Below the pieces are notes generated by a model. That model did not search any database. It saw only the letters and a program-made list of their open reading frames with translations, and was not told the origin of the DNA. Made by a program: the position numbers and the translations under genes. Below, piece after piece: positions 6,076 through 37,917 of a DNA stretch of 64,000 nt. Origin of the DNA: Takakia lepidozioides. Taxonomy: Eukaryota; Plantae; Bryophyta. Where the stretch lies: assembly GCA_030704615.1 (NCBI GenBank), contig CM060732.1, forward strand, positions 54,560,001 to 54,624,000. Direction: 5' to 3'. Each line of letters begins with the position of its first letter. Positions within the stretch are counted from its first letter, which is position 1.

Positions 6076-6604
6076 TGTCGTGCGCATACATATCGCTACA
6101 CAACTACATCGCTGTCCAAACCACACCACACATATATGCACAATAAAGTAGTCTGCCACAATGAGGTAAGAAAGCTAAAAGACACACTCTCAACACAAGA
6201 AATATGAAATCCATCGCTATCACTATTTAAAAATAGAAGTCGAGCCAGGGGCACCCCAAGCTATGGGGACTCCACCCCACAACAACCTACACTCCCATCA
6301 TAAGCACACTCAGATCTAAACGCATGAAGGAGCTCGGTCGCGCAGGCTCAACTTGAGAGAGATGAGCTGCGCGACTGCCGCTCTCGTGAAGATAAGACGG
6401 TTCAGGTGTCAAACTAAACTTGACACCTGACTTAACACTTGACCTAAATCCAAGTGTTAAGTACAAATAACTAGCTTTATTCTAGTCGTTTTCACATTGT
6501 GCTTATTTAACTTGACAGCTGTCGTGCGCATACATATCGCTACACAACTACATCGTTGTCCAAACCACACCACACATATATGCACAATAAAGTAGTCTGC
6601 CACA
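6076..6604 (-). repeat. 3' terminal repeat block: A (6520-6604), gc, B (~6162-6517), A (6076-6160)
   Basis: The two 85-bp A copies differ by 1 nt. B matches 29149-29501 with about 6 substitutions and small indels. Confidence 0.92.
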
Positions 6605-6616
6605 ATCGCCCCCCTA
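6605..6616 (-). promoter_or_regulatory. Polypurine tract of the MTase-Gypsy element
   Basis: The minus strand reads TAGGGGGGCG-AT-TGTGG..., immediately before repeat A. Confidence 0.75.
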
Positions 6617-6862
6617 GCTGGTGGGTAGGTCAATCTACCTCCAGATAGCTACAAGATGTAATAGCCACAGCCGTACTAAGTCCTCTATCACTGCCCCTAT
6701 TGCACTCAAACTCTATAGACCAAGAGGCCGGGTACAAGTAGCCCCATCGTTAGTCGCCGTCTTGCAATCTGTGAACTTGAGCCAGGACCTCGTGTGTTCA
6801 AGGTCTCCTAGTAGCTGGGCCTTGCGTTTCTTGTTAGCCTTCCATGGTTGTATGCACTCCCA

Positions 6863-8296
6863 CTATCCAATGCAATGTGGACATAACCAATCCCCATCCG
6901 GAACCATCTCAAGAGGTGGAGTCAAGCATCCCATATGCCAACCTCTAGAGCATTGATCACACACCAGCATGGTGGCTGCCCCTTTAGCATACCCACACAA
7001 CATGCACCTCAAACCTGCAGCCACTGCCAGGTTTGGGTCAATCCTGCCATCGACATTCGGAAGGTGACATGGCGCACAATTACGCACATGGTCCTTCCAA
7101 GTTATGCCATCCCGACCCTCCAAGACCAAGACGCCTGAGGGCAAGACCTCTCGAACCCTCAAAATAACACGTCCTGCAGTCACATCCAGGGTCGTAGGAG
7201 TAGTCTGCTGCAGATAGACATAGTCACCAGGGTTGAATCTCCGAACCCCAGGACGATAGCCCCTACCACGTATGGTAGCATACCTCAACGTATCACGGTG
7301 TTGTGCAATGGCAAGGTTCTCGAAAGCCATGGGCATGACTCTCTTGAACAACTCTGCACGCTGCTCACATGCACGTGCCCACACGTCCGGATCGTCAAGG
7401 TTAAGAACTGTAGCAGCTTCTCTGCGAATGGATGTAGGCAAATCCGGCTCTCGGCCAAAGAGAAGAAAGTATGGTGAGAAGGAGGCAAGTGATGCTTGCT
7501 TGCTAAACCTGTAGCCCATGGCTAACCAGGGTAACTGAAGGTCCCAATCTCCTAGGTGTCCATTCTGCAAGCCATACTTGCGCAAACCCCTCTTTACTGT
7601 CTGAACAACTCTCTCTGCCAAGCCATCGGCCTCAGGATGATCCCGAGAAGTGGTGCGGTGGTCTATCAAGGCCTTGTCACACAAAGCCTGAAACTCCCCA
7701 AGAACTCTCTCCCTTGGTCCGTGAGTACCTCAGCTGAGCACACCGAATCGGCTAAAAACACAATCCAAGAATGCATACTCAGCTCCCTCACTAGCCTTAT
7801 CAGGTAATGGAACCAATTCAATCCACTTGGAGAAGTGCTCCACCATCACCAACATGTACTTGTTGTGGCGCATGGTCAGTGGCAACGGCCCTGCGAAGTC
7901 AAGACTCCACCTGTAGCCCAATCCCATGATCGGAAGAGGGTGCAATTGTGGGTAGGGGCGTTGAATGAAGCACGCACCATGTCACACACCATGCACCTAG
8001 CCACAATTGTTGCACCTCTGTGTGCATACCACGCCACCAATACTGCCCCTGCAGTAGACTATGAGTGCGTCGCACCCCAAAATGCCCCAACTCCTCATGG
8101 GCATGCCGCACTAACCGTGCCCGACTAACCGTGCCCGCTGTGTTGGGTGAGGCACAATCCTCACTCGACCATCCTCCCACACTCGGAGCAGGTGTGTCCC
8201 CTCCCACTTGAACCTCTTGGCTCGTTGTAGGATCCGATCCCTCTCCTTGGCAGTCACAGTGGCTGCAGTGTCTCCAGTGCGGAGGTAGTCCAACAC
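6863..8296 (-). pseudogene. Integrase (HHCC and DDE) with C-terminal PHD finger, frameshifted
   Basis: HAHEELGHFG..YWWRGM, RWSLDFAGP, VLTDQG and DGLAERVVQTVK. The C-terminal CMLC..MLVCDQCSRGWHMGCLTPPLEMVPDGDWLCPHC is a C4HC3 PHD finger. Confidence 0.9.
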
Positions 8297-8845
8297 AACT
8301 GAATCCTCATGTATATCTTTGGCGCCACTTGCTCATTGCTGGCCTCAGGGTCCTCAGACACTTGATCTACAGTCATCCCTGTTGCAGGTCCATCTTGGCC
8401 TTCCGCTGCCAAGATACACAGAAATGCAGATGCATGCCATCCGGGCACCATCTCCTCGTCCATCTCACCATGCCACCGAGCTCCAGTGTCATCCTGCTGG
8501 CTCGTGCATGGATTGCGACTCAACCCATCTACATTGCGATTGACCAAACCCAGTCGATGCACCACCTGAAAGTCATACTCTTGAAGGATGAGTGCCCACC
8601 GTGCAAGCTTCCCCGTAAGCTTGTCTGACTCCATCAACCACTTGAGTGGTTGGTGATCCGTGACAAGGGTGAAGAGATTGCCATATAGATAGCACCTAAA
8701 GTGTGCCATGGCCCACACTGCAGCTAAGCATTCTCCCTCATATGAGCTATACTTAGACTCTGCAGCATTGTTCGAGCGGCTAGAATAAGCCACTACGAAC
8801 TCTCTTCCCTCATCATCCACCTGTGTGAGCACCGCTCCAAGCCCG
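8254..8845 (-). pseudogene. Ty3/Gypsy RNase H domain
   Basis: GLGAVLTQ..VVAYSSRSNNAAESKYSSYEGECLAAVWA..F.LVTDHQPLKWL..GKLARWALILQEYDF..NVDGLSR. Confidence 0.9.
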
Positions 8846-8934
8846 CCTGTACCGTCTCGGTAGGCAGAGAGACCGTCAAGGGAAGTGCACTCCGCACTCT
8901 ACATTGCTCAGCCATAGCCAAGCTGATAATTCAG

Positions 8935-9870
8935 GTCAAGCAATAGAGATCCATTGCTTGCCCCAACACTTGACGACGTGATGCCTCAGAAAGAGAAGGC
9001 ACCGCCGTGGTCCCAGTGGAAAATCCCATAGCCCGCTCTCGCTCATCGGCATTAGGCTCCACTAACTGCTGCAACTGAGCATCCCACAGGAGGCCAGGTC
9101 CACCATCCCGAAAAGCATGGGATCCTGGGAAGCTGAGCAGTGTAGGTAATGCTGTTCGTGGTTGACTCACCCTGTTGACCACTGCCAAAGGCGAACGGTC
9201 ATCGTGTCTCACACGTTGAGACTGCCTCCCTGTGTCCAAAATGCTATCCACTATGAGGTGTGTTGGCCGCTTCACCCCATCAAATGCACGCTTGAGCAGT
9301 GCGGGTGGCATCAAGTTAGTCCACCATAGCCGTGGACGATGAGCCCGTGATCCCACTGCAGCTGCATCTAGCAGCACTGCTAACCCAAGCCACGACGGGA
9401 CTTGATGCACACTGGCCATCACCCTGGCCCGAGAATCGCCCATCAGTGGCACATTCTCCAAGATGTATGCTGGCGATACAGCTTGATGAAGCTGCAAGTG
9501 GCGCAAAATCCGCACCATCTCCCAAAACAGACCCGTCCTCGAGTCTCGCAATCCATTGCCATGCCCGGCTGATGAATGCCCTTGGCAGGGCCAACCTGCC
9601 ACTACCAGATCAATGGAGCCAACCTACTCCCACTCCGGCGCCCCCAGCAACGAAATGTCTGCTGGCAAGGCTTGTTGGTATCCACGAACTGCAGACACTG
9701 GTAACAAAGCAGGGTACTGCTGTACCAACTGAGCAACATGGCACAGTGAGACACGTCGTGTAGTCTTATCCCTCTCCACATACAGGTAACGCCTTACCCG
9801 CACACCTGCCTGTAGCATAGCAGCCAATCCGGTGCTGATCCCGCCAAACAAGTCCAGAAGGCAAATGCCT
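8935..9870 (-). pseudogene. DNMT3-like C5 cytosine methyltransferase domain within Pol (copy 1; in-frame TAG at 9624-9626)
   Basis: Motif I LDLFGGISTG, II YVERD, III ADI, IV VAGWPCQGHS, VI YILENV, VIII AHRPRLWWTN, IX ERERAMGF and X QVLGQAM. Confidence 0.9.
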
Positions 9871-9998
9871 TCATCCGGATACAACCACACAATAGATGTG
9901 GTATCCAATGGTGACAACTGAGGTGGTCTTGGTGCAATACCTGTACTCTCCTCCTCTCCTGATGGTACAAAAGCCTTTACCCAGGCTTGTTGCACCCG

Positions 9999-11368
9999 TC
10001 AATCAGCAACCTGCTGCAAATCCTTGCTCGTACCCCACAATGGAGTGTGAGCAACCATGGCAGGCAACTCCGCCATACCATGCATGTCATCCTGCTCTGC
10101 TGGAGGTGGCACATCCTCTGCATTGGCATTTCCTTCCAGCAACTCTCCAGGCCAACTAACTGCAGCTGTAAAGGCGGCTAGTGTTGGCATCTTGCCCCGT
10201 TGGGCAGCCGCAATATCCCGAATGAATGTCACAGGGAGCTGTCCACGACGACCATCCCCTGACTGCCATCCAGGCCTGTAGAATGCTGACTCCTCCCAAA
10301 AATCCAGGGTGAAGCCCATGGGGTATAACACTGCCCCCCACCACGAGGACATTGTAAGAGACCGCGTCTGTCACAATGGCCTTGGCTCGCATTACTGAGC
10401 CATCGATAAAATGATCCGGCTGTAGTCTAATGGCCAACTGATGCCGTGTCATGCCCCGAGCCTGCTCTGATCCTCCCAGAGAAGTCTGTATCTAGAGAGG
10501 ACAAGGCTCCATATCCGCCTCCATGAGGCCCAAATCTGCAATAGCAGCTCTGCCCAACATCAGTGGCTGAGCTCCCAAGTCCAACAAGATCCGTAGTGGC
10601 CGATACTTCTTGCCAGCCGGTCCACTCAAAGAGAAAATGCCATCCTGGTTGTCTAACAAGACAACTCCAGGTGTCACCATGGCGCGCTCAAAGGCTGGCC
10701 TAGCTGGCAGCTCTGTCAACCTGGCAGCTGCAGCTCGCCATGGCGCAGCCGTGGCAGTCTTGACCCTCAAATCCGAGGATCCCTCTGCCACTACACCTTC
10801 CAGTAACTCCGCAGAAGATGAAGTGACCCCCCACTCTCACAGAGTGTTGCTAGTCTGAACACTGCAGCTGGACTTACCCCGGGCGTCGCAATCATGGTTG
10901 CCGAGAATAGTGGGGATTGACACAAAGAGGTGGCTGCCCCCAACAACACACTGGCTGCACTAGCCTTGGTAGCAGGTGTCAGTGTTGCAAGTGTAGCTCT
11001 CCCCAATGGCATAGAAACCCCGCCTCGGTAACAGTCGGGCGAGAACTAGGTGCCATGGATGGTGTTGACACTGTCTCCGCCAATGTGAATGACTGAGGCA
11101 GCCTCGCCTGACGGCTTGCCTCCCCACATTGTGGATCCAACTCCACCTCTGCACCTCGTGGCTCAGGAACTCGTGCTGCTCCTCGAGTCACGGCTGCAGC
11201 AGACTCCACCTGCTCTAGTGGTAGTGCTGCTCCGCACATGAATCCCATGCCTCCCATATCTCCTCCCTCAGGAACAGGAGGTGGACCATCCCGCCTGGGA
11301 GCCGGTATCGCCTGAGTTGTAGCCATGGCAGCGAGCCTGTGCTCTAGCTGCTGAAGCCGGTTGGCCAT
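9999..11368 (-). pseudogene. Gag-protease linker and aspartic protease (copy 1), frameshifted
   Basis: LLDLGAQPLML here and FLDSGAQPLML in copy 2, followed by YNVLVGG. Collinear with the open frame of copy 2. Confidence 0.8.
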
Positions 11369-11470
11369 GCCTTGGTCAACACCCTGACCTCCACGTCCTT
11401 GGCCATGTTGAGCTTGCCCTTGGCCTGCACCTCGTGCCCGACCACCTCGTCCTCTCTGGGCCGGTCCACC

Positions 11471-12817
11471 TCACCCCCGACCACCATTGTTCCTTTGGAA
11501 CTGGCCTGGGCGCAACTCAGGATGCAAGTCATAACACTGGGCATCTCCATGCCCATATTTGCCACAATGCCCACACTGCAACTGTGCTGGCTGTGTTTGT
11601 GCTGGCCTTTTGCCACTCTCTGGGCAATTTCTCTTGACATGGGGTCCTCCACATGTCCAACATATCACCCCTGGTTGCTGTTGGCCTGCAAAAGATGCCA
11701 CGGGCCTCTGCCCCTGAGGTCCCCTGTAAGCTCCATGGAACTTGGGTTGGGAAACCTTGCCCCCCTGACCACGCTGTTGGGTAGTCCCTTGTGCCTGTGG
11801 GCTGGCAGCTGCGCCTTGTGCAGGCATGTCCTTGCCAAACCCAATGGTAACAACTCGCTCCTCCACCATATTGAGCTCAATCCGCTCAGCCAGCAGAAAC
11901 ACATCTGCTAATGTGGGTTGGGCTGCTTGTAACAGGGTTGCATCCCGCACCCTTCTCTTGAGCTCCTTGTCCAAAATTCCATACCAGAACTGGATTGCCT
12001 GAGCTTCAGTAACCCCTTGGGTCACACTTATCAAGCGCCTCATACGAGTGTAGGCCTCTCGCAAGCTCTCACTGGGTTTGCGCTGGAAGTCTTGCAAACT
12101 TCGCAGCTTCTCTGTCCGTACACCTTGGTAGTTCCTCCGCAACTCCTGAAAGAACTCCACCACCAGGTTGAATCTAGGCACATGTGTTGTAGTCGTGGCA
12201 GTAGAAGTAGTAGAACCATTTGAACTGGTACCACCTGCAGAAGTACCGGCACTACTTGTTCCACTACTAGTGCTGGCAGTGGGAGATATTGGTACTGATG
12301 CAGCTACTAGTCGCGTCATGCCTGGAGTAATGGAGACGTAGTCAGATGACCAATACATCCTCCACTCCTCAATCTCTGCTTCATGTCCTCGCCTGAACTC
12401 GTGGTAATCGTCCATAGGCAGGCCTTCCAAATGCTGGAACAGTCCCTTCCACGCCATGAATAGGGTGAATAGCTGTGGATTGCGCATCTGCTGCAAATCA
12501 CACCTGCTGTCGAACTCCTGGATAAAGTCATCCAACTCGATTGTGCCCATAGCTCCAGAGTACCTACGAGGCCCCTTGGTAGCTCCATACATCTCCTCCA
12601 TGTCGTCCCACAACAATGGCGAATGAAACTGCACACCTGATGATGAAGCCTCCGAGTCTCTGTCTGACTCTACACTAGTTGAGGGTGGAGGTGAAGGTGG
12701 TCTGAAACGAACACCTCGTCTCGTGAACCCACTCTCACTGCTACTGCCTGTAGCCGTACTCCCCTCAAAACCCTTGGGTAACTCCGTGATGACACTCACA
12801 ATGTGCATCTCCCCCAC
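11471..12817 (-). CDS. Gag of the MTase-Gypsy element, with two CCHC zinc knuckles
   Basis: RRYSG..LDDFIQEFD, FQRKPSESLREAYTRM, CWTCGGPHVKRNC and CGHCGKYGHGDAQC. Confidence 0.82.
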   Translation of the reverse strand: MGEMHIVSVITELPKGFEGSTATGSSSESGFTRRGVRFRPPSPPPSTSVESDRDSEASSSGVQFHSPLLWDDMEEMYGATKGPRRYSGAMGTIELDDFIQEFDSRCDLQQMRNPQLFTLFMAWKGLFQHLEGLPMDDYHEFRRGHEAEIEEWRMYWSSDYVSITPGMTRLVAASVPISPTASTSSGTSSAGTSAGGTSSNGSTTSTATTTTHVPRFNLVVEFFQELRRNYQGVRTEKLRSLQDFQRKPSESLREAYTRMRRLISVTQGVTEAQAIQFWYGILDKELKRRVRDATLLQAAQPTLADVFLLAERIELNMVEERVVTIGFGKDMPAQGAAASPQAQGTTQQRGQGGKVSQPKFHGAYRGPQGQRPVASFAGQQQPGVICWTCGGPHVKRNCPESGKRPAQTQPAQLQCGHCGKYGHGDAQCYDLHPELRPGQFQRNNGGRG

Positions 12818-13335
12818 GTGACACTATAAGGCTCTAGTACTAATTCTAATAGTGACACGGGTGGGCACTTGTTGCAGTTTAAGGGTCATATCCCAATGGC
12901 TCAGGGCACTGCACCTGCATCCACCGCAAGAACTCCTATGGTTGGCTGGTCATCAACCCAGCCTCACCATAGAAGAAACACTGGTGGTCTTGCTGGTCGT
13001 CACTCCAGCCTCACCACCGACAGCATACTCTAGGATTGACCGGTGATCAAATCCGGCCTAATCCCTATGAAAGCAAGCGCCCACACAAAACCAACATGGC
13101 GCACAGTCAAGCATGCAGGTGTTGGGAGGGATCCAAACAAGAAATCAAAACATCAACACCCCCCACACCAAAATCCAGCTGCAATGCTGATCCTGCAGAA
13201 TAGCCCTGCCCAAAACCCCGAACTGACTGGCCTCCACCAAGAGAGGCTTTGGCAACTACAAGTACAAGGTAATGAAAATAGTACAAAGATGGAGGGGAAG
13301 AATAGAAGCCCGACCAAGCAAGATCTAATCCTGAT

Positions 13336-14085
13336 CTATTCTATCAACTGCCAGACTTCTCTCAAAGTGCCTCGCTCTGCATGATGGTAAGGTGTAGGAG
13401 GTATATTTATGTCCAGAAACCTGCCACTAACCTTGTCCCAAGCTACAGTAGCTCGCTCTAACCAACCCTCCTCCTCTTTCTGCCAGGTAGAGACAAAGCA
13501 ACACTCTGTTATCTCCCGCTCACTGAACACTAAAGAAAACAAAGGTAGGGTCTGATAGTCTCTCAACTTGAAAGCTTTGAGACGGTTGCGGGTGTCCACA
13601 TTGCGAATGACTGCATCTCCTTCAAACAGAACAAACTTGTCATTGCTAATGAACCCCCGCTCGTGGTTGCCTTGTGCAGAGCGTGTCCGGCTGCAACGCT
13701 GTCTAATTGCACAAACATGTGTAGCTCCTGCTCCTCTACTCCAATACACCACGGCCTTATGGCTGAACACCTTGGTCCCTGGGGCTGTCTTTGGCTGTGT
13801 TCCAAGCCTAGCTTTCACCCACTTTGGTATTTCACCTACAGCTACAGAACTGCTGGCTCCAACAGAGTTCTGACTGTCCAAAGCGCTATTGAGGCCCTCA
13901 ATGCCAACTACAGCAGTTTGTTGTCTACTGCTAATGCCTGACTCCCAGTATGCAATCAACTCGTCCAACTGTTCTCCACTCAAATCAGTCTGAGTTCCTT
14001 GGGAAACATAAATCATGTCCCCTTGTGTGCACACGCTAAGAGAAGAGACCTGCCCTTCAACGACGTCCTCATTTCCCCCAGCCAT
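13336..14085 (-). CDS. Extra ORF upstream of gag (249 aa, unknown function)
   Basis: ATG-initiated open frame. A homologous, frameshifted copy sits at the same position in copy 2 (37017-37767). Confidence 0.55.
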   Translation of the reverse strand: MAGGNEDVVEGQVSSLSVCTQGDMIYVSQGTQTDLSGEQLDELIAYWESGISSRQQTAVVGIEGLNSALDSQNSVGASSSVAVGEIPKWVKARLGTQPKTAPGTKVFSHKAVVYWSRGAGATHVCAIRQRCSRTRSAQGNHERGFISNDKFVLFEGDAVIRNVDTRNRLKAFKLRDYQTLPLFSLVFSEREITECCFVSTWQKEEEGWLERATVAWDKVSGRFLDINIPPTPYHHAERGTLREVWQLIE

Positions 14086-14729
14086 ACAAGGAGTACATCC
14101 CCAGATTTATCTCTCATGTAGACCAGGACAGGTTAGAAACAGAATTGTGATCTTTCATGGCACACTCACACTCTAAAATTCCATAGATTTTTAGCAGAGT
14201 CCCAAAACAAAAACCAATCTAGATAGGTAGATTTCCCCTTTCTGCAGCTATCCCCTCAAAAACTGAGTCAACGGAGCTCATTTGACAAAGATATGACCAA
14301 CCACGCTCTTTAAACATAACACCTTTTTCTTTTCCTTTCCCTTTTAAAAAAAAAATAAGACAGAACAAATGCAAAGGAAACTCCTTTTTCTTTTTTTTTT
14401 CAATACTTTCTTGGTTCTTCCCTGTTATCTACGGGTTCCCGAGGCCTTCCCCTCCAGGTCTATGCAAAATCAAGCTGGTGCCGACAACGCTCAAGTACTG
14501 AGGCACTCAGGATTGAAGACTATCTACTGCCCAACTCTTGCCTGCAGCTCTCACACCAGCAGGGCTTGTACCCGCAGAAAGCGATTCTCCAGCACCATCA
14601 TTCGTACTCCGATCGAAACCAGCTCTCATGCAATCACCAGGTGCTCCAACAGCATGCGCCATGGAACCAGCTTCAAAACGTCCAACCCCAAAAAGGGTCT
14701 CGTTTATCTACAATGAAGGTGCACACCCT

Positions 14730-15650
14730 TGTCGCGCGGCTTTTACTCACCCATCCCTTCGCTATCCGAGGCGGAAACTCCAAGATAGAAGAGTTGGAAA
14801 TCTCTAAGTACTCAGCCCGCGCAGAACAATCAGTCATGACCTACAGCTAGTGTATCATGGGGGTGTTTCCTATTTGTTTCCCTTTCCGCATTCATCTTAG
14901 CTACCTTACCATTGATAATTAAGTATCAGTTTGCTTCCAATCTATCGGTTTCCTTCACTCATCCATTCAATCCACAGCTTCTCTCAGATCTCTCTACACA
15001 GTGTGATTGTATCGTATAAGTATCAGATTATGATTTATCAGGTATCAGGCCGAAGCCATTATGTCTCTAATCTGCTCTCCAATATCACTACAGCTTTGCA
15101 TATAACAAGCATCTACTAATCCTCTTTTCTCCTTCATCGTGCTCTCCATCTCTTGCCTCCGATCTCCGCTCCCCCTGACTCCGAAGTCCTCCTCCGAATA
15201 ATGATCATCCCCTTCATTCCCCGTTTCTCCCTTTATCCTCCTATCCGCGGTTCTAACCGTTTCCCTCTCTAACCGTCGTCTGTGAACTAACATGTTCCCT
15301 TCACAGGTGTTGTTCCCCACAGTCGTTCCCTGTCCTACTCTTCGTTCCCTATTATCGTGACAGCTGTGTCAAGCGGTGACTGGCTGTGTTTGGCTGTGTC
15401 GGGCTGTGACTGGCTGTGTGGGCTGTGTTGCTGTGACGACTGTGACGGCTGTGTGCTGTGTGGGCTACTGTGTTGGCTGTGGGCTGTGACGACTGTGACG
15501 GGCTGTGTCGGCTGTGTGACGACTGTGTAACCCCCCTCTACAGTGCGCTGCTGTCACCCCTAAGGCTCCTGTTGGTCTCAGTCTGTGCAAAAATTAAGGG
15601 TACCCTACAGATCCCGTATAAGTGTCTAAGTCCCCTACAGTCCTCTAACA
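14730..15650 (-). repeat. 3' LTR of the nested Gypsy element
   Basis: Near-identical to 26856-27768. The differences lie mainly in the GGCTGTG repeat tract. Confidence 0.95.
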
Positions 15651-15652
15651 TT

Positions 15653-15666
15653 ACCCCTTCCCCCTC
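15653..15666 (-). promoter_or_regulatory. PPT of the nested Gypsy element
   Basis: The minus strand reads GAGGGGGAAGGGGT next to the 3' LTR. Confidence 0.85.
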
Positions 15667-15699
15667 AAAAAGCCGTGTCCTCACGGTTTACTGTTTTCG

Positions 15700-18600
15700 A
15701 GTAGCAAACCTTTGTGAGTGAGCACCTTTGTTGACGTTGAGAGTTTCGTGGGGGGCTGTGTTGTACGAGGCCCGAGGTCTGTCTCTGGTGATGGAGAGGT
15801 TGATAGTACTGGATAAGTGAGGCCTTCTGGAGGCTGATATCGAGGTAATCTTTCCGGCATAGGAGATCCCTTTGTTTCTTCTCTTCCATCTGAATTGCAT
15901 AGTCTTCTCCCATGTCAAAAGGATTTGTGAAGAAGAAACAGTTTATCAGAATCCTCATCGCCTCTCAGGTGTTTTAATTTTCGAACTTTTTGTGGAAGGA
16001 ATCATCTGGGGCATACAATGCTGTCCTACCATGTCTGGAAGTTTGTATTTTACAACTTGGTGTAACCGCTGAACAGCAAAATTGGTTGTAGGCACTGAGC
16101 TCCTTGTCTGTCCAGAGAGTGAGTGGGTACCAATTAATGGTGCAAGCGTGCAAGTAATTCCATGCCACATGTCCCTTATAGAAAAAATGTCATCAAGTCC
16201 GAATTTTGTGTTGACAAATGGTTGCAGGCGCCTGAAACCATGAACGAATTGAGAATCCTTCTGCATCATAACTTTGGGTCATATAGGTACATATGAGGTG
16301 GCACGAAGTAATACCCAATGATCTCCACTGGAGTAACTTTGAAAGCGTGTTTGCATCTTTTTGTGCTCAATGTGGTAACGTACCAGAACAAGCAGCGTAG
16401 TAGTATAGCCCGCACCCCATGACAATACTTGCTAGCTCCTTGGTCTTGGTATAAATGAGTCCATGTACAACCTGGAAAGCAACCAATTCCCTCAACATGG
16501 TACCTGCCTCGTGCCAGTATTGTGCAAAGTGATGATCTTCAATATGTCGATTGTTGGAAGAACTTTAGTCCTAGTTGCCACTGGCAGCCAATACGCATGA
16601 TTTGGTAGTAATGTGCGAATGACTGCGGAGGACTAAATTCTTTCCAAGCCAATCCAACATGATGGGAATTGGTTGAAGGGCATAAGCATAGCCCTGCTGT
16701 ACTCCCTTGCAGCTGGAGTTTTAGGTGGGTTAAAAGCGGCATTGCCCCATACCTCCGGCTGTGGTGGCTGTGGTGTGGTTGTAGTAACCACAGGTTCAGC
16801 TACTGGTACACTGACCTGTTGTGGTGGTGGTGGTACTGGCTCTGTATCATTGGCATCTCCTGCACCTCCTGTGAAGACTGAAAAGCCAGAGTTCTGGCTT
16901 GCAAATAAGAAGCCATTAGCTGTTCCTGAGGGATATAGACTCTTTGGTCGATGTTTGAAGTGAGGTTTCCACTTGAGTCTGGAGTCCGTCTACATCCTCT
17001 TGTAACTCTGCTATCCTACTATAGACATTGTCTATAGTAGTTGTGGCAATGTTCTGCACCTGCAGTCTGAGCTCATTCATCTCGCTTTGGGTGAGCTTCC
17101 GTGGGCTTTTGCCCTCTACTGGCCCTTGTGCTAACCAGACCTGCATAAGGCTGTTATCCACCAAGCTGCTTGTGGTTCCCCTGAGAGTTTGCTCCTCTCT
17201 TAGCTTGTACAATTCCAACTGCTGTTGTAAAGCCTCCATGCGCTTCGCCTGTGGCTCAACCAATTGCGCATAGGCCAGCAAGTAGATTATTGGCTTCCTT
17301 CGAAGCCTTGTTACTGACCGCGATTCATTTCTATTGGCCACGATGGTTTGTTGCAACTCCACGATGTGTTTCTCTTGATCAGCTTCCCTCTGCCTGTATT
17401 GCTTGAAAGTATCTTCATGGCGACAGATTGTATTCTTCATATCGACAATGAGCTTCATTTGCTCAACATTCTCTTCTTCTGCCTTCGTACATTTTCCGCT
17501 TGACTGTTTATTTCTTTTGTTGATTGGTCAAGCATAGTTGTAAATGTAGCACATTGTATCGCCATCCTGTTATGCACTGTCTGCAACTCCGTATGTAGTG
17601 CATTCAGTTCTTGCAACTTGCTTTCATGCTGCACCTGCATTTGGTATAGCTGTTGCTTATGTGCTTCGTGCAACTGGTCTTGCGCGAGGTTTGCCTCAAT
17701 CAATTGTTGCTTGGCCAACTGCAAAGCCATTTCTGTATTGCCCAAGTCCTGCTTCATCTTGAGAGTGACCTCTTCATCGACCTTGTTTGCACACTCAGTG
17801 GCAAGTCGAGCCTCAAACTCCTTCCTGAGTTCCTCTTTCAAGGCTGTCAATTGGGTAATTGGAACATGGGATTTGACATAAGTCCCAACAAATTAAGTGT
17901 CCTGCCTATGGAACTCATCAGCATTGCCTGTGAGGGTCATCATGGTGAGGTTGCTGCTGTGTTCCTCCCGATCTTCAACAGTATGATGTCTCACTAACCA
18001 TTCAGGCCATTGTCCCACCGGATTTTCTTCCTGAACTACTTCATCTATGACTGGTGTTACAGTGTCATGACCTTCCGCCTGTGGTACCTCCAACACAGGT
18101 GTGTGCATTATATGCACCTCAGGATTTCCCTTGGGCAACTGTTGCACCTCTGGGAATTTCTGTCTCCTTGACCAGACCAGAATATTCATAGAGAAGGTCC
18201 CCTTTCTCTATTTCTGCCACTATCTGTTCTGTAGTTGGAATATCTATCCCTTCACTTTCCAAATCAATTATTTCGGGTTGAGCTGCATGGATAACTTGTG
18301 ACCTTGTGACAAGTCGTTCAAGTGGCTGTGTTGGCTGTGATGCAGAAGTAACTTCCTCCTCCCTCTCTGAAGGTCCTGCTTCCAGTAATAACATTCTTTG
18401 TGCTGCTGTGCCCCTTCCTGGTCATGAGCTTGGGAAACATTATCATGCGGAATCCGTGAAGCCAGTGGATCCGCCACTACAGTCTTTCCCCTTCTCTGCC
18501 TCTTAGTCTCGGGTTGTGCTGCTAGTCCACCCTCACTGTGTGAAGAGCCTTGCTCTTCCATTGCAGTTGTTTCTGGCTCAAACACTCCCATTTCCTTCCT

Positions 18601-26835: not shown

Positions 26836-26853
26836 TCCCCAGTATGGTCGCCA
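26836..26853 (-). promoter_or_regulatory. tRNA primer-binding site of the nested element (possibly tRNA-Arg)
   Basis: The minus strand reads TGGCGACCATACTGGGGA, 2 nt after the 5' LTR. The tRNA identity is an inference. Confidence 0.8.
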
Positions 26854-26855
26854 AA

Positions 26856-27768
26856 TGTCGCGCGGCTTTTACTCACCCATCCCTTCGCTATCCGAGGCGG
26901 AAACTCCAAGATAGAAGAGTTGGAAATCTCTAAGTACTCAGCCCGCGCAGAACAATCAGTCATGACCTACAGCTAGTGTATCATGGGGGTGTTTCCTATT
27001 TGTTTCCCTTTCCGCATTCATCTTAGCTACCTTACCATTGATAATTAAGTATTAGTTTGCTTCTTCAATCTATCGGTTTCCTTCACTCATCCATTCAATC
27101 CACAGCTTCTCTCAGATCTCTCTACACAGTGTGATTGTATCTTATAAGTATCAGATTATGATTTATCAGGTATCAGGCCGAAGCCATTATGTCTCTAATC
27201 TGCTCTCCAATATCACTACAGCTTTGCATATAACAAGCATCTACTAATCCTCTTTTCTCCTTCATCGTGCTCTCCATCTCTTGCCTCAGATCTCCGCTCC
27301 AGCCTGACTCCGAAGTCCTCCTCCGAATAATGATCATCCCCCTTCATTCCCCGTTTCTCCCTTTATCCTCCTATCCGCGGTTCTAACCGTTTCCCTCTCT
27401 AACCGTCGTCTGTGAACTAACATGTTCCCTTCACAGGTGTTGTTCCCCACAGTCGTTCCCTGTCCTACTCTTCGTTCCCTATTATCGTGACAGCTGTGTC
27501 AAGCGGTGACTGGCTGTGTGGGCTGTGTCTGCTGTGACGACTGTGACGGGCTGTGTTGGCTGTGTGGGCTGTGTCGGCTGTGTGGGCTGTGTTGGCTGTG
27601 TGGGCTGTGACGACTGTGACGGGCTGTGTCGGCTGTGACGACTGTGTAACCCCCCTCTACAGTGCGCTGCTGTCACCCCTAAGGCTCCTGTTGGTCTCAG
27701 TCTGTGCAAAATTAAGGGTACCCTACAGATCCCGTATAAGTGTCTAAGTCCCCTACAGTCCTCTAACA
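26856..27768 (-). repeat. 5' LTR of the nested Gypsy element
   Basis: Direct repeat of 14730-15650, followed by the TSD ACCCT. Confidence 0.95.
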
Positions 27769-28209
27769 ACCCTTTTGCAACCCTCAACGCAGCAGTGACC
27801 TGCTCCCTTCCACTGGCCATCAGTATTTTTCTCACCTCTGCAGTGACATCCACCTGCCAGTTGCATCATGAATCCAGAGCTTATCCTCGTCTCTGTTTTC
27901 GGTTTTTGGATTTCTGCCTACAATCCCATAGGCAATAGAATGTTGAAACACTTCGGGCGACCATAGATCTACCCATGGAGCAGAAGGCGTGCTGCTTATA
28001 TCTATAAGCTGCGAGCTTGGAGTGGTCTCAGAAAACCAACAAAATGCGGCTCAGCAGCCAGCCTCCTCAGAACAAGCCAACCCTGCCAAGTAGCTTCAAT
28101 GCACTAGGAGAAACCTTAGAACACGGTGTTTTCATGCCCTACTTAGGAGGAACAAAACAAACCTACAAATCCGGCAGTAAGCGCCACTGTTGTAGCGCGG
28201 ACAAACTCC

Positions 28210-28518
28210 TTCACGGTAGCGGGATGGCTGGACATGCTCGACGCGCACATGGATGCGCTTCCGAATGATCCTGGGACCAACCTGCTTGTTAACAACTACA
28301 CCAACAGCCCGCTTGGTGACATTCCAGACGATACCAGTGCGGCCATGGTAGAACTTGTGGGGCATGCCCTTGTGCACAACGCCATTCACCTTGATGTCCA
28401 CATAATCTCCAATCCTGTAATTTCTCAGATACGTGGTCAAGTGAATGTACCCCTTCTGCCTGAATGGCCGCGAGAACAGATCCCTGGTGCGCGATCGCAA
28501 TCCATGACCTGCCGGCAT
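28210..28518 (-). pseudogene. RPL21: Captured 60S ribosomal protein L21 (eL21) fragment, codons 1-103
   Basis: [80 protein letters not shown]. It is uninterrupted and truncated at the 3' end. Confidence 0.93.
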
Positions 28519-29148: not shown

Positions 29149-29501
29149 TGATAAGAAAGCTAAAAGACACACTCTCAACACAAGAAATATGAAATCCATC
29201 GCTATCACTCTTTAAAAATAGAAGTCGAGCCAGGGGCACCCCAAGCTATGGGGACTCCACCCCACAACAACCTACACTCCCATCATAAGCACACTCAGAT
29301 CTAAACGCATGAAGGAGCTCGGTCGCGCATGCTCAACTCGAGAGAGATGAGCTGCGCGACTGCCGCTCTCGTGAAGATAAGACGGTTCAGGTGTCAAACT
29401 AAACTTGACACTTGACTTAACACTTGACCTAAATCCAAGTGTTAAGTACAAATAACTAGCTTTATTCTAGTCGTTTTCACACTGTGATTATTAACTTGAC
29501 A
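29149..29501 (-). repeat. 5' terminal repeat (B) of the MTase-Gypsy element
   Basis: 353 bp with TG..CA ends, a direct repeat of ~6162-6517. Confidence 0.92.
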
Positions 29502-30783: not shown

Positions 30784-31607
30784 GGGGGTTGGTATCCTAT
30801 GAGCACAGCGTGAGCATGCTCATGTGAGCACGGCATGAGCACAACCCACAGTCATGGGGTTGTATGTTTTTAAACCATGGTCATAGGAATTACTTGTTTT
30901 GAGGCACGGTGCATTTATAGGATGCAGCTGCACCAAAACGATAAATTATCTGATCTATCTTTCAATTTCGCATTGAGAAATTAAAATTAAGTAGTAGTTT
31001 CGGGAGTGAGAGTTTTAATTTCACACCGAGAAATTAAAATTAAGTAGGAGTTTCGGGAGTGAGAGTTTTAATTTTGCACTGAGAAAATAAAATTAAGTAG
31101 GAGTTTCGGGAGTGAGAGTTTTAATTTCGCACTGAGAAAATAAAATTAAGTAGGAGTTTCGGGAGTGAGAGTTTTAATTTCGCATTGAGAAAATAAAATT
31201 AACTAGTAGTTTTGGGAGTGAAATTTCGCATTGAGAAATTAAAAATAAGTACCGTAGTAGTTTTGGGAGTGAGAATTTCGTCTCAATAAATTATCCATGG
31301 GACGTGACAATCTTTAAGGTCTCTTGGAGTCTCAACGCCCTTTTCTCAAGTCTATCATGGAAAGGGCCTAGTATCGGGTGAGCATAGCGTGAGGAAATCC
31401 CACACCTATAGGATAACATATTTATCATGTATAGGGGTTACTTGTTTCTTAAGTGTTGCTGTCAAGGCCTATGTGAGCAGTTAAATTTCACAAAAGTTTT
31501 AGTTTTTCAATTTTCGTTTCGCTAAACAATATTTGGAAGGCATCTTAGGAATATGCGGTATATTCGCTTGTGCTCACGTGAGCATGCTCACTCGCTATCC
31601 AACCTCT
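30784..31607. mobile_element. MITE-like nonautonomous DNA transposon in the Roco intron
   Basis: Imperfect TIRs (GGGGGTTGG.. / ..CCAACCTCT) with GTGAGCATGCTCA subterminal motifs at both ends, and an 8-10 bp flanking duplication (c)(t)GTGTGCAC. Confidence 0.65.
30964..31280. repeat. 53-bp tandem repeat, about 6 copies
   Basis: Unit AATTTCGCATTGAGAAATTAAAATTAAGTAGTAGTTTCGGGAGTGAGAGTTTT at 30964, 31017, 31070, 31123 and 31176, plus a partial copy. Confidence 0.9.
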
Positions 31608-31862: not shown

Positions 31863-32270
31863 AGGGTAAACAACGTTGCGGAAATCAATGGCTCGAAGAA
31901 TTTCATATGTGGCTTCGAATGTGTGGGTTAAGGCATGGCATAAGGGCATGACTGTTTTCTCAAAATTGCAATGCATTAGACGGGAGTTGCAACGCACACG
32001 AGGGATTGAGGTTGAGACTACATTGCTTAACAACAACATTCAAATATCTTTATGGGATATTTTGCCAGGCAAGAGGATTTTCATTCATTTCATGATCTGA
32101 TGTTGCCCAACCTTAGCGGCCAAGGCAGTGTCGGCATATTCATATTTGTGTGCGACCCATTCAAGATGACAAACGACGTCGACCATGGACAAACGAAATT
32201 GGAGACAATCAAGAACGAGCTATTGTATTGGTTACGTTTTCTCTTTTCAAATACAAGAAGATCAACATTG
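31863..32270 (+). pseudogene. Roco pseudogene, segment 3 (ROC GTPase)
   Basis: GK(T)TLRKSM (P-loop with a 1-bp deletion), RTRGIEV, SLWD-FARQEDFHSFHDLMLP and YWLRFLFSNTRRS, typical of TORNADO1-like ROC domains. Confidence 0.85.
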
Positions 32271-35200
32271 TATCTATAGGGTCTCCGAAAGATTGGCGTG
32301 TCAGTAGCCAATTCAATGCGATTCTCTTGACCCTTCAGTGCTCCTAAGTCCTTCAAACTGAAGGCAAAGCAATTCCTGTAAGCCCTCAGGAACCACCGTA
32401 TACGTCGTCTCTCTCCTCCGGTGACAATGGGTCCAATGTCAGGCTCCCAATTGTCCTCCGTAACTGCAACCTTAAGTCCAGTGGGCTTAGAGGTAGAGGA
32501 CGCGTCCCGTGGTTGCTATGCCGCAACCTCTTGAGCAGTACTCCCTGCCTGCTCAGTCAATGACAAGGCCTCATCCTGCCCCATCATCTCATCCTTGATG
32601 ACCTCATCAACCCGAGAAGAATCCCCAACCTCATCCATCACAGCTGCCTTGGCTGCCAACTCCCTCTGAACCTCGAGCACCTCCCACGTGTGCCATGGAT
32701 GTCTACACCCCGTGTTCCTCACCAGCTCGCCCCCACTCGCTGCTTGTACCGTCTCGGTAGGCAGAGAGACCGTCAAGGGAGGTGCACTCCGCACTCTACG
32801 TTGCTCAGCCATAGCCAAGTTGATAATCCAGGTCAAGCAATTGAGATCCATTGCTTGCCCCAACACCTGACGACGTGATGCCTCAGAAAGAGAAGGCACC
32901 GCCGTGGTCCCAGTGGAAAACCCCATAGCCCGCTCTCGCTCGTCGGCATTAGGCTCTACTAACTGCTGCAACTGAGCATCCCACAGGAGGCCAGGTCCAC
33001 CATCCCGAAAACCATGGGATCCTGGCAAGTTGAGCAGTGTAGGTAATGCTGCTCGTGGTTGACCCACCCTGTTGACCACTGCCAAAGGCGAATGGTCATC
33101 GTGTCTCACACGTTGAGACTGCCTCCCTGTGTCCAAAATGCTGTCCACTGTGAGGTGTGCTGGCCGCTGCACCCCATCAAATGCACGCTTGAGCAGTGCG
33201 GGTGACATCAAGTTAGTCCACCATAGCCGTGGACGATGAGCCCGTGATCCCACTGCAGCTGCATCTAGCAGCACTGCTAACCCAAGCCACGACGGGACTT
33301 GATGCACACTGGCCATCACCCTGGCCCGAGAATCGCCCATCAGTGGCACATTCTCCAAGATGTATGCTGGCGATACAGCTTGATGAAGCTGCAAGTGGCG
33401 CAAAATCCGCACCATCTCCCAAAACAGACCCGTCCTCGAGTTTCGCAATCCATTGCCATGCCCGGCTGATGAATGCCCTTGGCAGGGCCAACCTGCCACT
33501 ACCAGATCAATGGAGCCAACCTGCTCCAAATCCGGCGCCCCCAGCAATGAAATGTCTGCTGGCAAGGCTTGTTGGTATCCACGAACTGCAGACACTGGCA
33601 ACAAAGCAGGGTACTGCTGTACCAACTGAGCAACATGGCGCAGTGAGACGCGTCGTGCAGTCTTATCCCTCTCCACCTATAGGTAACGCCTTACCCGCAC
33701 ACCTGCCTGTAGCACAGCAGCCAATCCGGTGCTGATCCCGCCAAACAAGTCCAGAAGACAAATGCCTTTATCTGGATACTGCCACACAATAGGCGTGGTA
33801 TCCAATGGTGACAACTGAGGTGGTCTTGGTGCAATACCCGCACTCTCTTCCTCTCCTGATGGTACAAAAGCCTCTACCCAGGCTTGTTGCACCCGTCGAT
33901 CAGCAACCTGCTGCAAATCCTTGCTCGTACCCCACAATGGAGTGTGAGCAACCATGGCAGGCAACTCCGCCATACAATGCATGTCATCCCGCTCTGCTGG
34001 AGGTGGCACATCCTCTGCATGGGCATTGTCTTCCAGCAACTCTCCAGGCCAACTAACTGCAGCTGTAAATGCGGCTAGTGTTGGCATCTTGCCCCGTTGG
34101 GCAGCCGCAATACCCCCAATGAATGTCACAGGGAGCTGTGCACGACGACCATCCCCTGACTGCCATCCAGGCCTGTAGAATGCTGACTCCTCCCAAAAGT
34201 CCAGGGTGAAGCCCATGGGGTATAACACTGCCCCACCAACGAGGACATTGTAAGAGACCGCGTCTGTCACAATGGCCTTGGCTCGCATTACTGAGCCATC
34301 GATAAAATGATCCGGCTGTAGTCTAATGGCCAACTGATGCCGTGTCATGCCCCGAGCCTGCTCTGAGCCTCCCAGAGATGTATGTATCTGGAAAGGACAA
34401 GGCTCCGTATCCGCCTCCATGAGGCCCAAATCTGCAATAGCAGCTCTGCCCAACATCAGTGGCTGAGCTCCCGAGTCCAAGAAGACCCGTAGTGGCCGGT
34501 ACTTCTTGCCTGCCGGTCCACTCAAAGAGAAAATGTCATCCTGGTTGTCTAACAAGACAACTCCAGGTGTCACCATGGCGCGCTCAAAGGCTGGCCTAGC
34601 TGGCAGCTCCGTCAACCTGGCAGCTGCAGCTTGCCATGGCGCAGCCGTGGCAGTCTTGACCCTCAAATCCGAGGATCCCTCTGCCACTACACCTTCCAGT
34701 AATTCCGCAGAAGATGAAGTGACCTCCCTACTCTCACAGAGTGTTGCTGCTAGTCTGAACACTGCAGCTGGTCTTACCCCCGGCGTCGCAATCATGGTTG
34801 CTGAGAACAGTGGGGCTTGACACACAAAGGTGGCTGCCCCTAACAACACACCGGCTGCACTAGCCTTGGTAGCAGGTGTCGGTGCTGCACGTGTAGCTCT
34901 CCCCAATGGCATAATAACCTCCGCCTCGGTAACAGTCGGGCGAGAACTAGGTGCCATGGATGGCGTTGACACTGTCTCCGCCAATGTGAATGACTGAGGA
35001 AGCCTCGCCTGACGGCTTGCCTCCACACGCTGTGGATCCAATTCCACCTGTGCACCTCGTGGCTCAGGAACTTGTGATGCTCCTCGAGTCACGGCTGGAG
35101 CAGACTCCACCTGCTCTAGTAGTAGCGCTGCTCCGCACATGAATCCCATGCCTCCCATATCTCCTCCCTCAGGCGCAGGAGGTGGACCATCCCGCCTGGG

Positions 35201-35359
35201 AGCCGGTACCACCTGAGCTGTGGCCATGGCAGCGAGCATGTGCTCTAGCTGCTGAAGCCGGTTGGCCATGCCTTGGTCAACACAGGCTGTGCTTGTGCCG
35301 GCCTTTTGCCACTCTCTGGGCAATCTCTCTTGATATGGGGTCCTCCACATGTCCAACAT
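32271..35359 (-). pseudogene. PR-DNMT3-like MTase-RT(N) polyprotein segment in one reading frame, with TAG stops at 33677-33679 and 32516-32518
   Basis: ORFs 33677-35359, 32516-33676 and 32090-32356 share a frame. They contain FLDSGAQ, all C5-MTase motifs (~32830-33770) and the start of RT. Confidence 0.9.
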
Positions 35360-37917
35360 ATCACCTCTGGTTGCTGTTGGCCTGCAAAAGATGCCACGGG
35401 CCTTTGCTCCTGAGGTCCCCTGTAAGCTCCATGGAACTTGGGTTGGGAAACCTTGCCGCCCTGACCACGCTGTTGGGCAGTGCCTTGTGCCTGTGGGCTG
35501 GCAGCTGCGCCTCGTGCAGGCATGTCCTTGCCAAATCCAATGGTAACAATTCGCTCCTCCACCATGTTGAGCTCAATCCGCTCAGCCAGCAGAAACACAT
35601 CTGCTAATGTGGGTTGGGCTGCTTGTAACAGGGTTGCATCTCGCACCCTTCTTTTGAGCTCATTGTCCAGAATTCCATACCAAAACAAGATTGCCTGAGC
35701 TTCAGTAACCCCTTGGGTCACACTTATCAAGCGCCTTTCGCAGGTTCTCACTGGGTTTGCGCTGGAAGTCTTGCAAACTTCGCAGCTTCTCTGTCCGTAC
35801 ACCTTGGTAGCTGCTTTGCAACTCCTGGAAGAACTCCACCACCGGGTTGAATCTAGGCACATGTGTTGTAGTCGTGGCAGGAGGAGTAGTAGCACCTTTT
35901 GAACTGGTACCACCTGCAGAAGTACCGGCACTACTTGTTCCACTACTAGTGCTGGCAGTGGGAGATATTGGTACTGATGCAGCTACTAGTCGCGTCGTGC
36001 CTCGAGTAATGGAGACGTAGTCAGGTGACCAATACATCCTCCACTCCTCAATCTCTGCTTCATGTCCTCGCCTGAACTCGTGGTAATCGTCCATAGGCGG
36101 GCCTTCCAAATGCTGGAACAGTCCCTTCCACGCCATGAATATGGTGAATAGATGTGGATTGCGCATCTGCTGCAAATCACACCAGCTGTCGAACTCCTGG
36201 ATAAAGTCATCCAACTCGATTGTGCCCACAGCTCCAGAGTACCTACGAGGCCCCTTGGTAGCTCCATACATCTCCTCCATGTCGTCCCACAACAATGGCG
36301 AATGAAACTGCACACCTGTTGATGAAGCCTCCGAGTCTGTGTCTAACTCTGCACTAGTTGAGGGTGGAGGTGGAGGTGGTCTGAAACGAACACCTCGTCT
36401 CGTGAACCCACTCTCACTGCTACTGCCTGTAGCCGTGCTCCCCTCAGAACCCTTGGGTAACTCCGTGATGACACTCACAATGTGCACCTCCCCCACGTGA
36501 CACTATAAGGCTCTAGTACTAATTCTAATAGTGACACGGGTGGGCACTTGTTGCAGTTTGAGGGTCATATCCCAGTGGCTCAGGGCACCTGCACCTGCAT
36601 CCACCGCAAGAACTCCTATGGTTGGCTGGTCATCAACCCAGTCTCACCATAGAAGAAACATTGGTGGTCTTGCTGGTCATCACTCCAGCCTCACCACCGA
36701 CAGCATACTCTAGGATTGACCGGTGATCAAATCCGGCCTAATCCCTATGAAAGCAAGCGCCCACACAAAACCAACATGGTGCACAGTCAAGCATGCAGGT
36801 GTTGGGGGGGATCCAAACACAAGAAATCAAAACATCAACACCCCCACACCAAAATCCAGCTGCAATGCTGATCATGCAGAATATCCCAGCCCAAAACCCC
36901 GGACTGACTGGCCTCCACCAAGAGAGGCTTTGGCAACTACAAGTACAAGGTAATGAAAATAGTAATGAGATGGAGGGGAAGAATAGAAGCCCGACCAAGT
37001 AAGATCTAATCCTGATCTATGCTATCAACTGCCAGACTTCTCTCAAAGTACCTCTCTCTGCATGATGGTAAGGTGTAGGAGGTATATCTATGTCCAGAAA
37101 CCTACCACTAACCTTATCCCAAGCTACAGTAGCTCGCTCTAACCAACCCTCCTCCTCTCTCTGCCAAGTAGAGACAAAGCAATATTCCCCTATCTCCCGC
37201 TCACTGAACACTAAAGAAAACAAAGGTAGGGTCTGATAGTCTCTCAACTCGACAGGTTTTGAGACGGTTGCGAGTGTCCTCATTGCGAAGGACTGCATCT
37301 CCCTCAAGCAAAACAAACTTGTCATTGCTTATGAACCCCCGCTCGTGGTTGCCTTGTGCAGAGCGTGTCCGGCTACAACCATGTCTGATTGCACAAACTT
37401 GTGTAGCTCCTGCTCCTCTGCTCCAATACACCACGACCTTGTGGCTGAACACCTTGGTCCCCCGGGATTTCTTTGGCTGTGTTCCAAGCCTAGCTTTCAC
37501 CCACTTTGGTATTTCACCTACAGCTGCAGAACTGCTGGCTCCAACAGAGTTCTGACTGTCCCAAGCGATATTGAGGCCCTCAACGTCAACTACAGCAGTT
37601 TGTTGTCTACTGCTAATGCCTGACTCCCAGTATGCAATCAACTCGTCCAACTGTTCTCCACTCAAATCAGTCTGAGTTCCTTGGGAAACATAAATCTTGT
37701 CCCCTTGTGTGCACAGGCTAAGAGACGAGACCTGCCCTTCAATTACGTCCTCATTTACCCCAGCCATACAAGGAGGACATCCACAGATTTGTCTCTCACA
37801 TAGACCAGAGCAGGTTCTAGAAACAGAATTGTGGATCTTTCACGGCACACTCACACTCTAAAAATTCCATAGATTTTTAGCAAAGTCCCAAAAACAAAAA
37901 CCAGGTCTCAGATAGGT
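32271..37917 (-). mobile_element. Second, end-truncated copy of the MTase-Gypsy family (extra ORF, gag, PR, MTase, start of RT)
   Basis: Collinear and highly similar to 8845-14230. It additionally keeps the post-MTase linker and the RT N-terminus FAFSLKDLG..RIELATDTPIFRRPYRY. No LTRs remain. Confidence 0.92.

Follow-up and report, generated by a model that had tools for sequence, protein, structure and literature searches.

A Ty3/Gypsy retrotransposon carrying a DNMT3-like cytosine-C5 methyltransferase is present twice, both times on the minus strand, in a 64,000-nucleotide stretch of the moss Takakia lepidozioides (assembly GCA_030704615.1, contig CM060732.1, positions 54,560,001 to 54,624,000; hereafter the window), as found by self-comparison. 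The two copies were compared with 80 metagenome loci (L numbers) and with protein sequences (P numbers). They belong to a real, conserved and abundant land-plant branch of the kind known from KnitGypsy-Dnmt3, the DNMT3-bearing Gypsy element of Klebsormidium nitens (de Mendoza et al. 2018, PMC5890265). On balance, we favour a reading in which the first open reading frame (ORF1) of the family encodes Gag, protease and the methyltransferase and ends at a leaky stop codon, so that the enzyme would be packaged at capsid level and would methylate the cDNA of the element before that cDNA integrates.

Self-comparison gave an identity between the copies of 95.6% over 2543 nucleotides and of 94.3% over 2651 nucleotides. 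Their coding features are the following:

6076-29501, minus strand: copy 1, whole element, delimited by its repeats, ends and target-site duplication (TSD)
13336-14106 (copy 1) and 37201-37839 (copy 2), minus strand: unassigned ORF-like region upstream of Gag, common to both copies
11471-12823, minus strand: copy 1 Gag, with a weak Retrotrans_gag match below the cut-off and CCHC-type knuckles near 11558-11662
10221-10707, minus strand: copy 1 aspartic protease region, frameshifted, from domain comparison and motifs
8895-9872, minus strand: copy 1 DNMT3-like C5 methyltransferase (PF00145), catalytic PC motif at 9579-9599
8254-8845, minus strand: copy 1 RNase H, from Pfam and self-comparison
6863-8200, minus strand: copy 1 integrase (H2C2 zinc finger and core; frameshifted), from Pfam
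6866-7015, minus strand: copy 1 PHD finger, C-terminal to the integrase, from Pfam
35280-36502, minus strand: copy 2 Gag, with frameshifts and a 200-nucleotide deletion relative to copy 1
34118-34603, minus strand: copy 2 protease, active-site motif at 34463-34480, in the same frame as the methyltransferase
32792-33769, minus strand: copy 2 DNMT3-like C5 methyltransferase, PC motif at 33476-33496, stop at 33677-33679
32510-32518, minus strand: copy 2 conserved in-frame stop, end of ORF1, context TAG CAA CCA
32269-32509, minus strand: copy 2 start of ORF2, which contains the reverse transcriptase (RT), broken off at ~32269

Both copies are dead. Copy 1 has nonsense codons at 9999-10001 (just upstream of the methyltransferase), 9624-9626 and 8931-8933 (inside the domain end) and is additionally frameshifted. 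Its methyltransferase tail is joined at ~8845 directly to RNase H by a deletion that took the linker, the conserved stop and the entire RT. Copy 2 carries the stop at 33677-33679 and ends at ~32269, ~80 codons into the N-terminal region of RT; neither copy therefore has the RT core. All four runs searched show loose ends at this break and one contig continues for 1551 nucleotides, so other copies are not truncated there. Homology of copy 2 to copy 1 stops at 37917, and no A repeat (see below) remains in copy 2. The ORF-like region upstream of Gag gave no Pfam match in either copy and no tblastx match in related loci. The original prediction, made from the letters of the window, had described a complete methyltransferase between protease and RT in both copies, sharing one frame with the RT start in copy 2, and had noted different nonsense codons in the two copies. 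The domain is indeed complete, non-permuted and downstream of the protease in both, and the codons at 9624-9626 and 33677-33679 are real, copy 1 having the further stops and frameshifts listed above. The position ahead of RT holds for the family; copy 1 has no RT and copy 2 only its start, which is in frame with the methyltransferase but separated from it by the stop at 32516-32518.

PF00145 matched the two copies above its curated cut-off (E 1.8e-12 and 8.9e-12), in agreement with the prediction, and motifs I, II, IV (PC), VI (ENV), VIII (RxR), IX and X are all present in non-permuted order; the seven motifs that had been quoted earlier were all located. By sequence, the best solved structures were DNMT3A (E 3.4e-10), then DNMT3B, DRM2 and M.HhaI. 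Profile searches gave 3.7e-23 for DNMT3A against 2.5e-11 for plant DRM and 1.2e-6 for M.HhaI, and E 1e-23 for DNMT3 against 3.5e-5 for DNMT2. The structure predicted from a 57-row alignment had a mean predicted local distance difference test score of 91.6, and its top Foldseek matches were DNMT3A-DNA complexes (E 2.7e-19, template modelling score 0.83 by target, 21% identity). By profile and by structural model, the enzyme resembles DNMT3 more than it does DRM, DNMT2 or bacterial methyltransferases, an assignment that rests on likeness to solved structures, the methyltransferase tree described below having contained no host DNMT3 sequence. Profile, structure search and domain content thus agree with the DNMT3-like enzyme in a Gypsy element that had been proposed.

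Conservation was counted over 82 rows (the 80 loci and both copies), using only rows aligned at at least 55% identity over the site. The motif I Phe is kept in 54/54 rows, the catalytic Cys in 57/60, the ENV Glu in 60/64 and the two motif VIII arginines in 38/65 and 48/65. Between the window and 63 loci, the methyltransferase has a median nonsynonymous divergence (dN) of 0.25, a saturated proportion of synonymous differences (0.76) and, in the 15 measurable pairs, a synonymous divergence (dS) of ~3. Its dN is like that of the other domains (Gag 0.31, protease 0.39, RT start 0.26). These comparisons indicate that the methyltransferase is under purifying selection between lineages and that it is a conserved feature of the family, not a decaying capture.

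The domain order Gag-protease-methyltransferase-RT-RNase H-integrase-PHD recurs across the 80 metagenome loci. At family level, the Gag, protease, RT, RNase H and DDE integrase of Ty3/Gypsy are all present, RT being absent from the window copies. Relatives were found in the liverworts Calypogeia fissa (73% identity) and Marchantia polymorpha (58-75%, many loci), in M. paleacea, Riccia sorocarpa, Sphagnum fallax, S. troendelagicum and S. tenellum, and in the algae Closterium (38%), Haematococcus (36%) and Scenedesmus. No vascular plant and no Klebsormidium appeared among the matches listed (58 and 120 rows, with 55 more matches unlisted). The relatives form 252 protein clusters (50% identity) with E up to 1e-30, and the commonest metagenome linker type is that of the S. 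fallax protein P0043. In public run X1 (organism A), 20,602 contigs aligned to 1951 bases, so the family is abundant in that organism; summed contig depth in the runs is not a copy number and indicates many variants only.

A methyltransferase tree (FastTree) was built from 139 rows, with 76 rows of unknown architecture omitted and no host DNMT3 outgroup. It separates, by one change with support 99, elements with the methyltransferase between protease and RT (53 rows: liverworts, Closterium and the window) from elements with the methyltransferase between RNase H and integrase (86 rows). The latter arrangement is the chlorophyte type and includes Haematococcus, Scenedesmus, P0059, P0312 and P0051. 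An RT tree of 55 rows shows the same split with weaker support (86). The window copies adjoin the liverwort elements in a 13-row group with support 100. These trees are compatible either with a single old capture and a later relocation or with two captures. Among the chlorophyte-type members, P0311 has an extra PTM/DIR17-like Tudor domain. Six loci (L053, L054, L056, L063, L066 and L067) form a divergent subfamily (42-54% identity) with a gap of 1.3-2.8 kb between methyltransferase and RT and without a stop motif close to the methyltransferase. In L060, L068, L070 and L075, which are also divergent, a fold-back rearrangement has placed an inverted methyltransferase-protease segment after methyltransferase-RT.

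The only relative among genome contigs, L081 (CADCWO010000201.1), lies in a bin labelled cyanobacterial (Synechococcales), and the family member P0207 lies in a bin labelled Obscuribacterales; both are likely eukaryotic contamination. A circular overlap of L081 was considered as a circular intermediate and set aside, being treated as an assembly collapse. The genome contigs gave no relative for protein P0031. Viral contigs gave only 12 weak matches to bacterial or phage methyltransferases (30-48% over short stretches), so a viral source is not indicated.

The linker between methyltransferase and RT was examined at 57 loci where the two domains lie at most 500 nucleotides apart, 7 loci with longer gaps being dropped. 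An in-frame TAG or TAA followed by CAA was found in all 39 loci in which the domains share a frame; the remaining 18 of the 57 are frameshifted. Without regard to frame, the TAG/TAA-CAA hexamer occurs 150-420 nucleotides past the methyltransferase at 61 of 77 loci, or 52 of 62 distinct insertions; the background is 0.16 per stretch, and a few of the 61 matches fall at other sites. The stop is followed by CAA CCA in the window, CAA CCC in the L001 type, CAA TCA or TTA in L075/L076 and CAA TCA in L081. Since most loci belong to one subfamily, the independent count is these four lineages. In L081, whose methyltransferase is 49-51% identical, open frames of 1162+ and 1047 codons are separated by that stop alone. 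The Marchantia proteins Mp_4g09160 and Mp_8g17980 consist of Gag, protease and methyltransferase and end 74 residues past the latter domain; Marchantia and Calypogeia ORFs generally terminate 72-76 residues past it.

Judged from these alignments, the copy 2 stop at 32516-32518 is a conserved feature of the family and not decay. Its context resembles UAG CAR YYA, the readthrough signal of tobacco mosaic virus (TMV), for which transient reporters in plants reportedly gave 32% and stable ones 6-10% (PMC2754532). The conserved stop matches this signal, so that ORF1 comprises Gag, protease and methyltransferase, and readthrough probably gives the RT-RNase H-integrase-PHD part. Downstream of the stop, no conserved RNA structure was detected (z -0.6, -1.3 and -2.4).

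The ends of the element were defined on copy 1, where the repeats are ordered A1 ... B1 A2 B2, the ends are TG..CA and CATT stands on both flanks:

29152-29501, minus strand: repeat A1, 5' end of copy 1, starting TGT; 344/351 columns identical to A2; TSD CATT directly outside
6607-6617, minus strand: purine tract CTAGGGGGG immediately before B1; the same tract precedes B in relatives
6520-6606, minus strand: repeat B1, ending ACA; 86/87 identical to B2
6514-6523, minus strand: palindromic B1/A2 junction GACAGCTGTC, 10 bp, made of right end ACA, GC and left end TGT
6167-6517, minus strand: repeat A2, from self-comparison with A1
6076-6162, minus strand: repeat B2, 3' end of copy 1, ending ACA; TSD CATT follows

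The TG..CA ends and short TSD are those of Ty3/Gypsy elements; two complete long terminal repeats (LTRs) are not present in copy 1, the repeats being split instead. Split repeats of the form A..B-A-B were found in the window, L051 and L055/L058. A 4-bp TSD flanks 6/6 distinct insertions having both ends among the fetched loci and the window, namely three full forms (window, L051, and L055, which equals L058) and three short A..B forms without A2-B2 (L014, L033 and L071). Recombination between B repeats, double cutting or a collapse during assembly could each explain the short forms. The purine tract CTAGGGGGG is likely the plus-strand primer site; in the window, L051, L055 and L058 alike, the sequence after A1 lacks a tRNA primer-binding site (TGG). 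An exact B/A junction is shared by the window, L003, L009 and the distant L081; with at most two mismatches it occurs in 8/28 PHD tails against 21/1640 shuffles. Self-comparison of 31 loci revealed no integrated form permuted to A-B-A at the 5' end. SymbioDIRS-Dnmt3 and other elements of the DIRS order, such as Ngaro and PAT, use a tyrosine recombinase; Pfam scans detected none here, and rve and H2C2 domains are present instead. The PHD finger best matches those of CHD4, PHF12, KDM5A/B, ATXR5, PHF21A, BAZ2, UHRF1 and AIRE, proteins that read histone H3 unmethylated at lysine 4 (H3K4), as does the ADD domain of DNMT3 itself. A palindromic end-to-end junction is cleaved by foamy-virus integrase (PMC1180852).

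Taken together, these features suggest the following cycle. The Gag-protease-methyltransferase polyprotein would be the main product, and leaky termination would yield a minority of full-length Pol with RT, RNase H, integrase and PHD finger. Lying in ORF1 ahead of the conserved stop, the enzyme would be packaged at capsid-like amounts, released by the protease within the particle and, at Gag level, would methylate the nascent cDNA there. Plus-strand DNA would start from the purine tract that precedes B1, and both ends would be restored by strand jumps via A and B, as proposed for split-repeat elements of the DIRS order, giving the ACA-GC-TGT junction. The DDE integrase may then cut this palindrome after each CA, producing processed ends of retroviral type, and insert the element, while the PHD finger would tether it to nucleosomes with unmethylated H3K4. 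The pre-methylated cDNA could pass as ordinary host DNA or arrive already silenced. Self-methylation by the encoded enzyme is a likely deduction from this arrangement. A wider proposal, which we put forward only tentatively and consider doubtful, is that the family is an ancient Gypsy lineage spread over green plants, from chlorophytes to liverworts and peat mosses, which would need no tRNA primer, would restore its ends by way of split repeats and would combine a palindrome-cutting integrase, a Gag-level DNMT3 and a PHD finger reading unmethylated H3K4 into a mobile, self-contained de novo methylation system. If true, this system would mark the DNA of the element itself and might shape the host methylome where copies are numerous.

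Several observations weigh against the proposed cycle. The KnitGypsy-Dnmt3 domain gave no methylation in yeast, a result its authors called inconclusive (PMC5890265). The two motif VIII arginines are altered in 27/65 and 17/65 rows, mostly by CpG-type decay. The dN/dS of the methyltransferase is 0.57 among metagenomic loci (0.35-0.61 for other domains) and 0.68 between copies 1 and 2, so that nearly all copies observed are decaying. No stop motif was found in the stretch examined at 16/77 loci, mostly of the divergent long-insert subfamily but including the deleted copy 1, and P0045, P0305 and Closterium run from methyltransferase into RT as a single ORF. In the L001 type, reinitiation is possible: its context, CAA CCC, which is the most frequent one, departs from CARYYA at the final base, and an ATG lies two codons past the stop. 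The B/A junction, even with two mismatches allowed, is confined to 8 of the 28 PHD tails, and about half of the 3' ends finish at a single B, other tails being decayed. CpG depletion was also considered as a sign of self-methylation and rejected: the observed/expected ratio is 0.46-0.51 in the copies and 0.33 in a nested Ty3 element without methyltransferase, and CpG loss no deeper than in that element is not evidence of self-methylation.

Action of the enzyme in trans, on host chromatin, the insertion site or competing elements, through the abundant ORF1 product or a PHD-guided readthrough product, is an unlikely alternative. Gag-level expression exceeds the need of one cDNA, the PHD finger resembles readers of unmethylated H3K4, the chlorophyte relatives place the methyltransferase beside the integrase (the 86 of 139 rows), and organism A seems to be very rich in members of the family. 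However, Gag products normally assemble in the cytoplasm. Moreover, the Klebsormidium methylome is described as not unusual (de Mendoza et al. 2018, PMC5890265).

Less probable again is that the domain has been kept not as a DNA methyltransferase but as a nucleic-acid-binding or RNA-methylating module that aids packaging or tRNA-independent priming. The missing TGG primer site would suit such a role, as would the inactivity of the Klebsormidium enzyme in yeast. Its fold and full set of catalytic motifs fit DNMT3 far better than DNMT2, however, and the related SymbioDIRS-Dnmt3 enzymes do methylate CG DNA (PMC5890265).

It is also improbable, to a slightly greater degree, that cDNA methylation occurs as proposed but ORF2 is expressed by splicing or reinitiation instead of readthrough. 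The ATG two codons past the stop in the L001-type subfamily could serve for reinitiation, and the public gene models P0012 and P0043 fuse the methyltransferase to RT by skipping the linker; the introns of these models are unverified predictions. Copy 2 has no Met codon from the conserved stop to the break at ~32269, the first Met of L081 ORF2 is at residue 117, inside RT, and the shared frame and CAA-YY context across four lineages also argue for readthrough. A recent, neutrally decaying capture of a host DNMT3, confined to these two copies as the original prediction had allowed, or an assembly artefact, is suggested by the two broken copies and their dN/dS of 0.68 but has already been refuted by the same domain order in dozens of independent loci, the 252 clusters, the saturated dS, and an identity of 21% to DNMT3A (structural alignment) against 66-74% to elements of other plants, namely Marchantia and Calypogeia.

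The element with DNMT3 retained in Gag ORF1 resembles KnitGypsy-Dnmt3 in its Gypsy domains, its intronless, non-permuted DNMT3 within the coding region, the purifying selection on that domain and its DIRS-like repeats (A1, B, A2, B), and self-methylation was already proposed for such elements (de Mendoza et al. 2018, PMC5890265). It differs in having land plants as hosts and in the position of DNMT3, which in KnitGypsy-Dnmt3 lies in the RT/RNase H ORF; here the conserved stop assigns it to the Gag ORF, and it would share an ORF with RT only if the stop is read through. The passages describing KnitGypsy-Dnmt3 make no mention of a PHD finger, TSD length, junction palindrome or readthrough. The comparison was made by description, no Klebsormidium-named match being among those listed. 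SymbioDIRS-Dnmt3 of Symbiodinium likewise joins a retroelement DNMT3 to split repeats, and its enzyme methylates CG de novo in yeast (PMC5890265), but it is a DIRS-order element of dinoflagellates, whereas the Takakia family has a DDE integrase and 4-bp TSDs. The order A1 ... B1 A2 B2 is that of the split-direct-repeat elements Ngaro, PAT and VIPER (PMC6681497), which encode a tyrosine recombinase, unlike the Gypsy RT, RNase H, integrase and TG..CA ends seen here. The stop context is like the TMV-type UAG CAR YYA and the candidate readthrough site of the rice gypsy element RIRE2 (PMC2754532), but lies after Gag, protease and methyltransferase, leaving the enzyme on the abundant side. A PHD finger in a green-lineage LTR-type element has a precedent in REM1 of Chlamydomonas (via PMC6673714). 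A 2025 survey (PMC12344493) repeats the KnitGypsy-Dnmt3 account and, in the passages available, names no land-plant family. Our searches, which did not extend to Repbase, REXdb or most subscription papers, found no published description of a land-plant family, as the original prediction had supposed, and none of five Marchantia gene identifiers searched appears in any paper found. New here are the land-plant host range, the readthrough-type stop placing the enzyme in the Gag ORF and the anatomy of the junction.

Why a transposon should carry the type of enzyme that silences transposons has been an open question since 2018, the only prior Gypsy example being algal and inactive in yeast. The conserved stop predicts a Gag-level enzyme and so changes the mechanism to be expected, and the combination of split repeats and a DDE integrase suggests that replication follows a hybrid of the DIRS and retroviral routes. 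Because close relatives with open ORFs exist in Marchantia polymorpha, for which CRISPR tools and met1 mutants are available, the question is directly testable; many transposons are released in these mutants (10.1101/363937). In bryophyte proteomes the ORFs are annotated as hypothetical proteins or DNA methyltransferases and can therefore distort DNMT counts.

The other features of the window are as follows:

14730-27768, minus strand: unrelated canonical Ty3/Gypsy element nested inside copy 1, without methyltransferase; LTRs 26856-27768 and 14730-15650; TSD AGGGT (5 bp)
28204-28518, minus strand: intronless ribosomal protein L21e fragment in the 5' region of copy 1 (PF01157, E 1.1e-44)
55879-58668, plus strand: intact intronless PLS-E-DYW pentatricopeptide repeat (PPR) gene, from protein matches
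1651-3099, plus strand: DUF4218 ORF (PF13960)
30907-31278: tandem array with a 53-nucleotide unit

Among the 120 best matches listed for the PPR-DYW gene, at 50-67% identity, are proteins of named gymnosperms and of one lycophyte, one moss and one liverwort. The gene bears out the land-plant host that had been proposed from the letters, although the comparison could not place the host below that level. Broken PPR fragments occur on both strands at ~39360, 47880-48500 and 51150-51950. The L21e fragment is possibly a transduced retrocopy, and DUF4218 we take to be typical of CACTA/En-Spm transposons. The RT at 21849-23129 is part of the nested Ty3 element and not of the methyltransferase element. 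The LTR pair of this 13-kb insertion shows 893 matches and 11 substitutions and contains 9-nucleotide tandem repeats. After its integrase (~15700-20400) lie several ORFs of 200+ codons without Pfam match, one of them coiled-coil-like.

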